From: Sphyrna mokarran
Lineage: Eukaryota
Reading direction: 5' to 3'
NCBI GenBank assembly: GCA_024679065.1
Contig: JAGIQG010000009.1
Span: 93,186,001-93,250,000 of the forward strand
Length of the DNA stretch: 64,000 nucleotides
The stretch's first letter is position 1; every line of letters begins with the position of its first letter. Positions 7,233 through 10,395 of this stretch are shown here, one piece after another. Under the pieces are notes generated by a model that saw only the letters and a list, made by a program, of their open reading frames with translations, made no database searches and had not been told where the DNA came from. The translations under genes and the position numbers were made by a program.

Positions 7233-8089
7233 TATGTGGATATATATCACCAATATATGTGGTGTTTAGCACTTAGAGATTGGCGTTCATGAAAATTGGA
7301 CGAAACTTGGAAAGGTAAGACAGATTGTGCTTCAATCGCAACTTGCCTGTTGAAATATACGAGTTAGTTAATGACAAATATAACTTTGATGGCAGAAAAT
7401 GAGAGATTTTCTGTCATGCTTCAGAATAAACATTGCTCATGAGACAGTTTTTGAAAAAAAAAATAAAAGGGATGAACTATAACAATAAAATAACATGTAA
7501 GGAAACTTCTTATTCAATTGAAAGAATCGAGAATGGTAATGAAGCCGCTAGGCATATGACGGGTTGCCAAGGAAACTGCAAACACTGGAAATTGCCAGCA
7601 GGTAAGTCACCAGCTTTGATTCACCTTCCGAAAGATATCCATTGTCTGATCCACCGGATTGTCGGCAACATATTAAACACTGCGCTCAGTTCACCGAATT
7701 ATATTCCTCATGGGTCAGAACTAATTTAATTTGATTGGACTGAGTAAGACCTTCCATCCGAAAGATGTATTGTGAGACATTTCAGTCAGCAGCCTATTTT
7801 AATACACTCAAGTGAGTGCCTTGTTCGAGTCTTTACGTCGCTCGTCAACGATTTTGTCTACCTCTAGCGGAACCCCAGTCCAGGGCCCACTTGATCTTGA
7901 TTGAGGTACGTGCGTTGGAGCCACAGCTAAGATGTTTTAGCTAGGGAACGTGAGTTGAGTTCAGAGCTAAGGTGTTATAGCTAGGTCTTTTACCGTCATC
8001 CCAGATGTTTATGGGCCTACTGGTGAGCCATTTTATCGGTACTGAGTGCTCGAGTTACTCCAGCGGGAGGGTGGAAATTTAGGGGACAT

Positions 8090-8318
8090 TTAGGCCGAAT
8101 TAAGGGGGATCCAATTGGGTGACACTTTGACTTCGCCAATTAGCCTAGTTAGCACGTTTTGGGGGATGTGGGAGGAAACCGCAGTGCCCGGAGAAAACCC
8201 ATGCAAGCACAGGGAGAATGTGCAAACTCCCGCAGACATTGACCAAGGCCGGGAGTCCGCCCTGGGTCCCCGTAGCTGCCCAGCCAACAGTGCTAATCAC
8301 TGGGCTGACGTGCTGCCC
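8090..8318 (-). mobile_element. HE1-like V-SINE head and V-domain embedded in the R2-like 3' UTR
   Basis: Starts GGGCAGCACG and contains GGAGTTTGCACATTCTCCC..TGGGTTTTCTCCGGGCACTGCGGTTTCCTCCCACA. A and B boxes are degenerate. No CR1 tail. Confidence 0.85.
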
Positions 8319-8454
8319 ATACGTCAGTCCATGTCAGCACACACTGCCGGCAGTAAAGTACTGGACAACTCTCAGATCGATACCCAAGAGCCATCCGAGC
8401 ACTACCCACCGAGTGCATGCCCCTTGTCGTTGACAAGGTGGACTATGGCACCTG
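8314..8454 (-). ncRNA. Putative structured RNA module (three-way junction), copy 1
   Basis: Minus-strand stems: AGTCCA/TGGACT, CCTTGTC/GACAAGG and an ~85-nt G-U-rich hairpin closed by GCATGCACT/AGTGTGTGC. Covaries with 22764-22904. Confidence 0.6.
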
Positions 8455-8620
8455 TGGGTGGAATAGGTGTCGTTAGTAACATTTAACACGAAACACACTG
8501 AACACAAACAATACGACAAACACCAGTGAGTCATCCATATCAATATATGGGCTCCATTGAGGGCTGTATGCCCTGATCTCTGACAAGTGCCCAGCTTGTC
8601 TTGCCGTCTTTTAGCATCTC

Positions 8621-10212
8621 TCACCTGTCGTTGAAGATCCCCAGTAGCTCCAACCTAAGTGACAGGGTGAGCCTTGAAATTTGTTGGGCGAACGAACGGA
8701 ATCTCTTTATTCTCAGGAAGGCCATGAGGCTGTTATTCTTTTCCAACCACTTGCCCCTGGCGCCAACAAATCCAAAGTATTGGGGATTCGGGCATCCGGT
8801 CAGTTTTCCAATGTCTGGTCCGAGATGTGGTATTTCAGGCACTTTTCCTGCCACGCCTTCTCCAAAACTGTCTTCCAACCAGACTGTCACATCCACCACC
8901 GCCACCTGATGATCCTTCTCCCTCTTGAAATGATGTCTGGTTTCCAGAAGGCGCCGTCTTTGGCGATGAGCCTTGGATCCAGGTAGTATGTCCAGCCGTA
9001 TTTTCCGACGTAATTGCGCAGTTGGTCCAAGATCTTATTGTGACGCTTGATCCGGCAGTTCTTCACGAATGGGCAAAAGCCAGAAATGTGTCCAAGTGTT
9101 TCCAAACTTGCCTCGCACTTTCCGCAGGTTTTTGTGGCAGAGGGATTCCCTCTTGATAGGGTCACTCTCGTCGGATACAAGTTACACCGAAGCAGTATGT
9201 TGTTTATCAGGCGATGGGATTTCAGCTGATATGCAGCCTTCATCCAACTGTTTGATATTTTATCGTTGTGGTAGTAATGTACTCCTACTCCTTGAAATGT
9301 GAGCTGTCTCCATTTGTGGAATTCCCATTCCTTCCATCCTGCATATCTATTCAGTGGCTTGCTGGGACCTGTCTCCTCCGCCGCCATTGGCAATGCAGCT
9401 CTGATCATCGCCGTTTCGTCATCGCCGCCGTCTTCAGTTGTTGGCATGAAGTCTTCGATTTCTCTCAATGCTTTGGCAGACCTCAATTCTTCGATGTTTC
9501 TGCCAACGTTCTGCTCGCAGAACTGAAACGAGACGCGAATGACTCGTTCATTGGAGGCAGACAGTGATTCCCATTTTCGGATCACCGCAGATGGTATCTG
9601 GATCTCAAGCTTGGGAATTCCCAGACCTCCATTCCAAGCCCGTGAATAGAGGATGCCATCTATTTTATGAGGTGGAAGCTGCAGGAATTGCTTGACAGCA
9701 TTGCGGATCAGTTGGTCCAGTTTAATTAGCGTATTTTGAGACGCTTCTGATAGGATCAGGTGATAATATAGTCTCGGATGACATGAACTGTGAGCAGCTC
9801 CACGCGTTGTTTTGGGCGAAGAGCTGCTGCCTGTGGACTGGAGATCCAAGTCTTCAGCCTCTCCTCCCATGCTCCTTCTTCTACACCAGCCCACGGGTCT
9901 ATCCGGGCTCCCAGGTATTTCTCAGTCTCTCCTGGGGGGATGTACACGATGTCCTTCTTGTAAATCTTCCAGTTTTTGCATTGGTTGTAAATGAACGTCT
10001 TGCTCTTGCAGGTGAAGTGGAATCCTTTGGTCTTGCTGGTGTTGACGGTAAGACCAGTCATTTCGCAAAAAGACTGGAGAATCTTCAGGTTTCGTGCCAT
10101 CCCGGTGTGCGAATCACTGAGCAGGGCGATGTCATCCGCGAACGCAAGGGCCGAGCAGTTGATTCTTGCTCCGTCTAGCGTCATGCTGACACCAGACTTT
10201 GCCGCTTCGAAG
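8621..10212 (-). pseudogene. Disrupted R2-like ORF (RT C-terminal half, CCHC zinc finger, restriction-like endonuclease)
   Basis: Three ORF-track pieces (9756-10319, 8887-9894, 8621-8905) join through 1-nt frameshifts near 9782 and 8930. A compensating frameshift pair lies near 8825-8865. Confidence 0.88.
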
Positions 10213-10339
10213 TTGCCACTTACTTCTTTGGAAGTAAAACCTAGTTGTCTTCGATAACTCGGCCGAAATGAAAAGTGCAGGACTGTTTGAACACAAATTT
10301 CTTCACGGGCAAGCAGCATTATACCAAGCCGTTTATGGC

Positions 10340-10395
10340 GCAGTGATCATGCTGCATTGTGATCACAAAAACCTCTGCTGGAATCGGTGTTGATC
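10340..10395 (+). pseudogene. tRNA-His pseudogene with D-arm deletion
   Basis: GCAGTGATCATG-CTGCATTGTGATCACAAAAACCTCTGCTGGAATCGGTGT aligns to His. The upstream flank matches the His-gene flank at ~59950-60023. A further His 3' fragment (TCGTATCCGAGTCACGGCA) lies at ~10494-10512. Confidence 0.65.

Follow-up and report, generated by a model that had tools for sequence, protein, structure and literature searches.

The retrotransposon copy at positions 7797 to 10210 of a 64,000-nucleotide stretch of the Sphyrna mokarran genome (assembly GCA_024679065.1, contig JAGIQG010000009.1, positions 93,186,001 to 93,250,000; the whole stretch is called the window below) is a dead, 5'-truncated member of a lineage-A R2 family whose insertion sites were likely set by a loosened reading of the 28S target and not by tRNA genes. 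R2 elements normally insert only into ribosomal RNA genes. The junctions of this family keep a two-part echo of the 28S site, with TAG(C) where the nick falls and, in most cases, GTA some 20 bp further upstream, and the canonical 28S site is still in use. The stringency of insertion is likely to be lower than that of bird R2, and a position in CR1-type long interspersed nuclear elements (LINEs) likely acts as an abundant decoy. Taken singly, the window copy is ordinary.

The window copy lies on the minus strand and retains about 2.4 of 4.9 kb. Its open reading frame (ORF) remnant (8621-10210, minus strand) covers the reverse transcriptase (RT) from the FADD region, the thumb, the CCHC knuckle and the restriction-like endonuclease. 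It matches Pfam RVT_1, and the best PDB matches of the protein remnants are R2Tg and a turtle R2 (E ~1e-40). With the protein of the full-length copy L097 as query, tblastn placed amino acids 822-967 at 10214-9777 (90%), 968-1288 at 9777-8827 (80%) and 1252-1357 at 8929-8624 (75%). Two frameshifts lie near 9777 and 8915; read in the correct frame, the RT segment is 92% identical to L097. An earlier examination of the letters without database searches (the sequence-only reading) had claimed remnants of R2-type RT, CCHC and PD..D/EK motifs, and these were confirmed by tblastn and PDB on the minus strand. Compared with the full-length copies L061, L064 and L065 the identity is 93% along the entire length.

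The 3' untranslated region (UTR) of about 825 nt (7797-8620, minus strand) terminates in TATTAAAA and is followed directly by the downstream half of the target, TAGGC (7792-7796, minus strand), whose counterpart in 28S is TAGCC (junctions in L118-L128). The 3' end at 7797, placed together with 29 other copies, is the one given by the sequence-only reading. Its 5' limit of 10395, or about 10245, had to be corrected: 29 other copies part from the window sequence at 10208-10212, which puts the element's 5' end at 10210 and makes the window copy a 5' truncation inside the RT. The 12 nt at the 5' junction (10211-10222, minus strand) have no counterpart in the other copies and are of uncertain origin, either untemplated or genomic; a paralogous site in the window is about 11 nt shorter there. 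Rfam found no rRNA sequence anywhere in the 64-kb window, in agreement with the claim that no 28S sequence flanks the element. A segment of the 3' UTR (8112-8454) resembles a short interspersed nuclear element (SINE), presumably of HE1/V-SINE-like type, and matches window positions 22585-22904 with 70% identity. Autonomous and non-coding members of the family alike carry it as a fixed part of their 3' UTR, and read depth in public runs rises about 40-fold over it. Because the copies align through the segment, a secondary SINE insertion private to the window copy was rejected.

The family was studied at loci that are the top matches to two queries and not a random draw, the pattern censuses excepted. 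A first look at the 2.77-Gb genome gave 827 candidates for the family 3' end. At least 400 exact 3' ends were found genome-wide, on many large contigs (control 0), as well as 160 exact heads with a 28S leader. Of 57 copies fetched in 10-kb stretches three have no readable 3' end, and many are full length at about 4.9 kb. The family was also seen in contigs of public runs from two other organisms. These hundreds of dispersed copies, their lineage-A identity and the residual TAG(C) support the relaxed-specificity R2 lineage that the sequence-only reading had proposed.

The family shows the R2-clade layout of one ORF with RT, CCHC knuckle and C-terminal restriction-like endonuclease. The ORF is 1,358 amino acids long in L094, where FADD, CCHC and PD..D/EK are all intact, and 1,357 amino acids long in L097, which has FAND. 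Recovery of 4.9-kb copies with a 28S leader also brought out the N terminus, where the three zinc fingers of lineage A (CCHH, CCHC, CCHH) are present together with a Myb region, lost from the window copy by truncation. The Myb region aligns to the zinc finger (ZnF)/Myb part of R2Tg (125 bits) and to PlaMe; Pfam Myb gave no match at E 0.1. The family protein matches R2Tg with E 3e-212 and 711 bits, compared with 257 bits for R2Bm-type entries, and its nearest proteins are found in catshark (67% and 63%) and bamboo shark (48%).

A quick tree of the region from RT to endonuclease gave a shark clade with support of 100, which joins coelacanth with 97. The tree is midpoint-rooted, its rows do not include R2B-D, R8, R9, NeSL or Utopia, and the deeper join to the bird/turtle/teleost clade is weak (38). 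In the window row the first 96 residues are in the wrong frame, which makes the long branch of that row an artefact. Star-like groups, A, B and C, are seen in a DNA tree of 49 copies: A includes the window copy (end branch 3.5%), B has end branches of about 3%, and C, where the long ORFs are found, of about 1%. Two family copies, L073 and L090 (G000:C738:41141413-41158370), follow one another in tandem; L073 is flanked on its 3' side by another copy's head, an insertion into or beside the family's own 28S-derived leader. In the smooth-hound protein P0020 a stretch 77% identical to the family RT is joined with many C2H2 fingers, which may be a gene-model artefact or a capture.

Of 97 junctions, 24 fall at a first CR1 site and 6 at a second one, which leaves 67 at other places. 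The first five positions of these 67 non-CR1 junctions read T60 A56 G45 C35 C30, after which the composition is flat. On the other side, GTA occurs 5-23 nt before the 5' junction at 24 of 36 non-CR1 sites, compared with 21.5% further upstream (p 8e-9), and at 23 of 35 sites when the window copy is left out (p 2e-8). The T of this GTA clusters 15-21 nt before the 5' junction. Off-target insertions of R2Tg are described with a match of 4-5 nt downstream and a match at -19 to -25 upstream, the T at -20 being conserved (PMC12222951). In a different repeat, one site with its T exactly at -20 is common to L074 and L215.

The family 3' end stands exactly at TAGCC in 7 of 11 assembled 28S target fragments, identified by 28S primer matches, and one of the 3' ends at the 28S site is on a true large subunit (LSU) contig (Rfam, 1105 bits). 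L193 is a full-length copy within a 28S fragment of about 240 nt. L192 has about 360 nt of downstream 28S and no upstream 28S, and looks like 3' read-through from ribosomal DNA (rDNA). The canonical restriction to the 28S site was not found, since at least 400 3' ends compare with 7 at assembled 28S fragments, the array itself being unassembled. L122, L123 and L126 (around 1490-1740) hold dispersed 28S fragments without R2, whose start is about 10 nt upstream of where R2 nicks; they are possibly pieces of 28S RNA reverse-transcribed by R2.

Translation of many 3' flanks gives RPVSLTSVVGK, and the codons directly before it close the 5' flanks. The hot spot is one codon position in the RT region of CR1-type LINEs, N-Y|R-P-V-S-L-T. 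The host repeat is presumably CR1, judged from RT motifs in the ORF of L176. The strict pattern of the site is present at no fewer than 47 of 400 3' ends genome-wide (at least 12%), where flank composition predicts 1.3% even were only TAGRCY sites open; TAGRCY junctions amount to just 26 of 97 overall. CR1-group elements make up 22-34% of elasmobranch genomes (PMC13343379), and the number of empty CR1 sites, 49,029, is a lower bound. The use of the site differs between subfamilies. In subfamily B 23 of 28 exact 3' ends (82%; 22 by script and L233 by eye) are at the CR1 site, all in sense orientation, and the strict pattern holds for 18 of 28 in B compared with 29 of 372 in the remainder (about 8%, p 4e-12).

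The CR1 site reads GG(T/G)AGTA about 20 bp upstream of TAGRC, as in 28S with a one-base offset. Among the hit CR1 sites whose 5' flank can be read, 40 of 47 have GTA at -22 to -20 (counted by hand, with the duplicate L089 counted once and L100, L260 and L275 having no readable upstream motif), compared with 8,903 of 49,029 empty sites (18%). No hit sites were found in the commonest CR1 family, which lacks GTA. Seven young copies of the non-coding partner described below, 97-98.5% identical to the closest reference, are inserted at the CR1 site, and GTA is present in 7 of 7. The second CR1 hot spot, just before QVDKVVKKAYG, accounts for L064, L088, L094, L099, L210 and L216. A third CR1 site, near the CR1 C terminus, is common to L104 and L226.

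Copying of a few R2-in-CR1 composites by the CR1 machinery or by segmental duplication would also give such a hot spot. Most B copies are in one CR1 family, the junction CCCT|GG is common to L106, L113, L115, L203 and L207, and L085 and L089 are a duplicated pair, all of which agree with composite copying. As the cause of the hot spot it is nonetheless quite improbable, and it is largely refuted already by the flanks and the inserts. At least five CR1 families have been hit by four R2 subfamilies with varied 5' junctions, and the hit flanks are intermixed with empty copies. The CCCT|GG junction recurs in a different CR1 family (L115), as microhomology predicts. The inserts that share the same CR1 base, the non-coding partner included, range from 48 nt to 4.9 kb.

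Full-length heads start with 28S sequence from position -28, which is the commonest cut site of R2 ribozymes (PMC3774820). A fold like that of the hepatitis delta virus (HDV) ribozyme (P1, P1.1, P2, P3, P4) is formable in 94.6% of cells, compared with 22-55% when slid. Rfam gave no match to a 5' ribozyme at gathering score in L096 or L097. All 7 aligned heads of subfamily B have T where 28S has C, compared with 3 of 14 other heads, and the shared base suggests that the B head was probably not renewed from a 28S gene. The commonest 3' signature belongs to an ORF-less partner of 1.4-1.6 kb (L209:6388-8001, plus strand; also L218, L223-L225 and L257-L274), which accounts for some two thirds of the 3' ends among the first 100 listed. 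The partner consists of a full 28S leader, often tandemly repeated, the HDV-like motif, the SINE-like piece and the R2 3' end, and it falls into at least two subfamilies that are 84% apart. A simple deletion of the sampled autonomous copies does not account for its middle. Two small contigs with a 28S leader were rejected as rDNA, being copies of this partner. No loose ends linking the family 5' end to 28S were found in the public-run contigs, which is evidence neither way.

The main rival explanation is an ordinary, stringent R2, which would leave many of the same traces if its masters stayed in rDNA and rare misfires accumulated in a slowly evolving genome while rDNA purged the on-target copies. 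The junction motif equals the off-target pattern of R2Tg, the 28S leaders begin at -28, 7 of the 11 28S fragments are occupied, an R2 3' end is on the LSU contig, and the downstream-only 28S of L192 is as expected of rDNA read-through. Other sharks carry 28S-flanked lineage-A R2 (PMC13188248, Table S2). We consider this explanation unlikely, however. R2Tg is more than 99% on target in cells (PMC12222951), and the subfamilies here are star-like bursts with many full-length copies. The T for C in the B heads also speaks against it, and a stringent protein leaves unexplained why one subfamily is at CR1 in 82% of cases and the rest in about 8%.

The contrast between the subfamilies (18/28 against 29/372) and the derived B head together argue that at least subfamily B ran outside rDNA, possibly from a CR1-resident master. 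A further, more tentative step would be that subfamily B left rDNA and adopted the CR1 LINE as a new host unit. A B master inserted in sense at N-Y|R-P-V-S-L-T would be transcribed along with CR1 in the way R2 usually is with rDNA, and CR1 bases gained by read-through at its RNA 3' end would direct new B copies to the same site. Such a CR1 host fits because 23 of 28 copies are at the site, all in sense, and share a derived leader and ribozyme loop.

A number of observations weigh against loosened specificity as the general explanation. The G at position 3 is missing in 22 of the 67 non-CR1 junctions, and GTA is missing at 7 of the 47 hit CR1 sites. The window of 5-23 nt for GTA was picked after the flanks had been viewed, and the test omitted 17 loci (9 with the 5' flank outside or uncertain, 4 28S sites, 1 duplicate, 2 head duplications and 1 degenerate). 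CR1 has its T at -21, compared with -20 for 28S; a nick placed one base earlier would cancel the offset but is hidden by a shared A. The commonest unhit CR1 family is very young, with end branches mostly below 1.5%, and may postdate subfamily B; the contrast of 40/47 against 18% is then inflated and partly confounded by age. The predicted HDV-like fold lacks compensatory changes and fails to outdo shuffled sequences. Hardly any of the rDNA array is assembled, which hides its share of the copies. Loosened specificity is, moreover, deduced from where copies survive, and the positions of survivors can mislead because rDNA purges copies (PMC13580325).

The sequence-only reading had also suggested that the lineage possibly favours tRNA clusters. 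Ty3, Ty1 and TRE5 target the region upstream of tRNA or other RNA polymerase III (Pol III) genes, and most copies of such elements are at a fixed distance from these genes, a pattern that was not found here. The single window copy, antiparallel to a His-like sequence about 118 bp away as described earlier, is upstream of that sequence and within a cluster of 11 tRNA genes. ARAGORN found no tRNA genes near the other copies in 57 of 57 10-kb stretches, nor in partly overlapping sets of 30, 30, 30, 40, 28 and 22 loci. No His-like sequence was present within 500 bp of 88 other copies, with an alignment sensitive enough to find the window pseudogene; two of these 88 give a weak score for Asp-like sequence, on their 3' side. 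Neither the flanks of the window site nor the His unit has homology to any other fetched locus. The suggestion is refuted by these counts, and tethering of the lineage upstream of tRNA genes in the manner of Ty3 or TRE5 is hardly credible. Since the neighbouring pseudogene is long dead and the insertion is about 3.5% diverged, tethering by Pol III at the time of the window insertion is unlikely as well. That one of hundreds of insertions should fall in a tRNA cluster would need no special cause.

The neighbour itself is a heavily decayed tRNA-His pseudogene (10329-10395, plus strand; local score 34, null maximum 26) and not the tRNA-His gene that had been reported beside the element. ARAGORN and Rfam made no tRNA calls between window positions 5438 and 17015. 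A His 3' fragment is found at 10494-10512 (18/19 match). The diverged empty paralogous site (20148-20385, plus strand, including a second His pseudogene at about 20332-20385) was recognized correctly. At about 20150-20256 it matches the joined flanks better than any other place in the window, with a score of 59 compared with a shuffled maximum of 33 and 38.5 for the next best independent site in the window, and the His pseudogene that follows it scores 56. The upstream regions of five intact His genes were rejected as better paralogs, with scores of 23-38. The alignment to the paralog is poor over the middle 25 nt and cannot place the junction to the base, and the boundaries are therefore not fixed by it as had been claimed. 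The shortness of the paralog opposite 10211-10222 favours the proposed target GAAG|TAGGC, short of proof; TAGGC at the 3' end was confirmed.

The 11 tRNA genes (His, Asp and Ser) are clustered at 1839-6623, 14935-17537 and 24355-61258 of the window, in diverged duplicated units of 2-5 kb with 75-85% identity. Four of the five His genes have an extra T in the D arm. A His-like sequence on the minus strand at 22159-22249 is about 78% identical to the intact genes and received no ARAGORN call.

The family agrees with vertebrate lineage-A R2 (R2Tg, PDB 9DOU and 9NL3; turtle PlaMe, 9NL2) in the order ZnF3 CCHH, ZnF2 CCHC, ZnF1, Myb, RT, CCHC and restriction-like endonuclease, in the 28S leader and in the exact TAGCC junction at 28S, but differs in its hundreds of copies outside rDNA and in the CR1 hot spot. 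Shark R2A is mostly 28S-flanked among the rows listed by Hassan et al. 2026 (PMC13188248), where the upstream-28S cell of the white shark row is empty; the main text contains neither 'CR1' nor 'dispersed' and names only sponge elements as not site-specific. Other R2 elements described as non-specific are R2NS-1_SMed (R2D, planarian) and R2NS-1_CSi (R2C, liver fluke) (PMC5035012), the cockroach BLAG (PMC7650587) and sponge families (PMC12247875, PMC13188248). R2NS-1_SMed, R2NS-1_CSi and BLAG are likewise dispersed outside 28S; they are invertebrate elements described as non-specific or random, the R2NS families belonging to other clades, whereas the Sphyrna family is of vertebrate lineage A, retains a two-part motif, continues to use 28S and has in addition a second site that is strong.

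R8 (18S) and R9 (another 28S site), cited in PMC5035012, are R2 lineages with a changed target that moved within rDNA, while the new preferred site in Sphyrna is inside another retrotransposon. The Drosophila R2 SIDEs (PMC3414825) are comparable to the ORF-less partner with its 28S leader, HDV-like motif and R2 3' end. They are in rDNA, whereas the partner is dispersed and has a middle that no simple deletion of the sampled autonomous copies would give. Off-target insertions of R2Tg in human cells have the same two sequence features and are less than 1% of laboratory events (PMC12222951), compared with a whole natural family in Sphyrna. The Myb domain separates R2 from Utopia (PMC12247875). 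The literature searches turned up neither a vertebrate R2 family that is dispersed nor an R2 inside CR1, though Repbase, subscription papers or supplements could hold one.

In the mechanism proposed for loosened 28S reading, the RNA would be freed from a read-through transcript by the predicted HDV-like ribozyme, which would cut where the 28-nt 28S leader begins. A GGGAGTA-like motif would be bound by ZnF1 together with the RT 6a loop, and the endonuclease would nick about 20 bp from it. A few bases at the 3' end of the RNA would pair with TAG(C) and so prime reverse transcription; joining at the 5' end would rely on microhomology or on a few added bases. In this scheme the window copy would be a near-cognate insertion that landed by chance in a tRNA cluster.

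Lineage-A R2 proteins underlie tools for rDNA-targeted gene insertion, and a 2026 review states that R2s without the canonical specificity are very few and calls for graded measures of it (PMC13580325). The Sphyrna genome supplies hundreds of natural near-cognate insertions together with nearly intact proteins, and its subfamilies differ about eightfold in the use of one decoy site. Comparison of the subfamilies could reveal the residues or RNA ends that determine stringency, and also how a site-specific element shifts to a new repeat. The family likely records how R2 loosens or shifts its aim, and a CR1 host for subfamily B, if true, would mean that a vertebrate R2 had been retargeted in nature to another retrotransposon.

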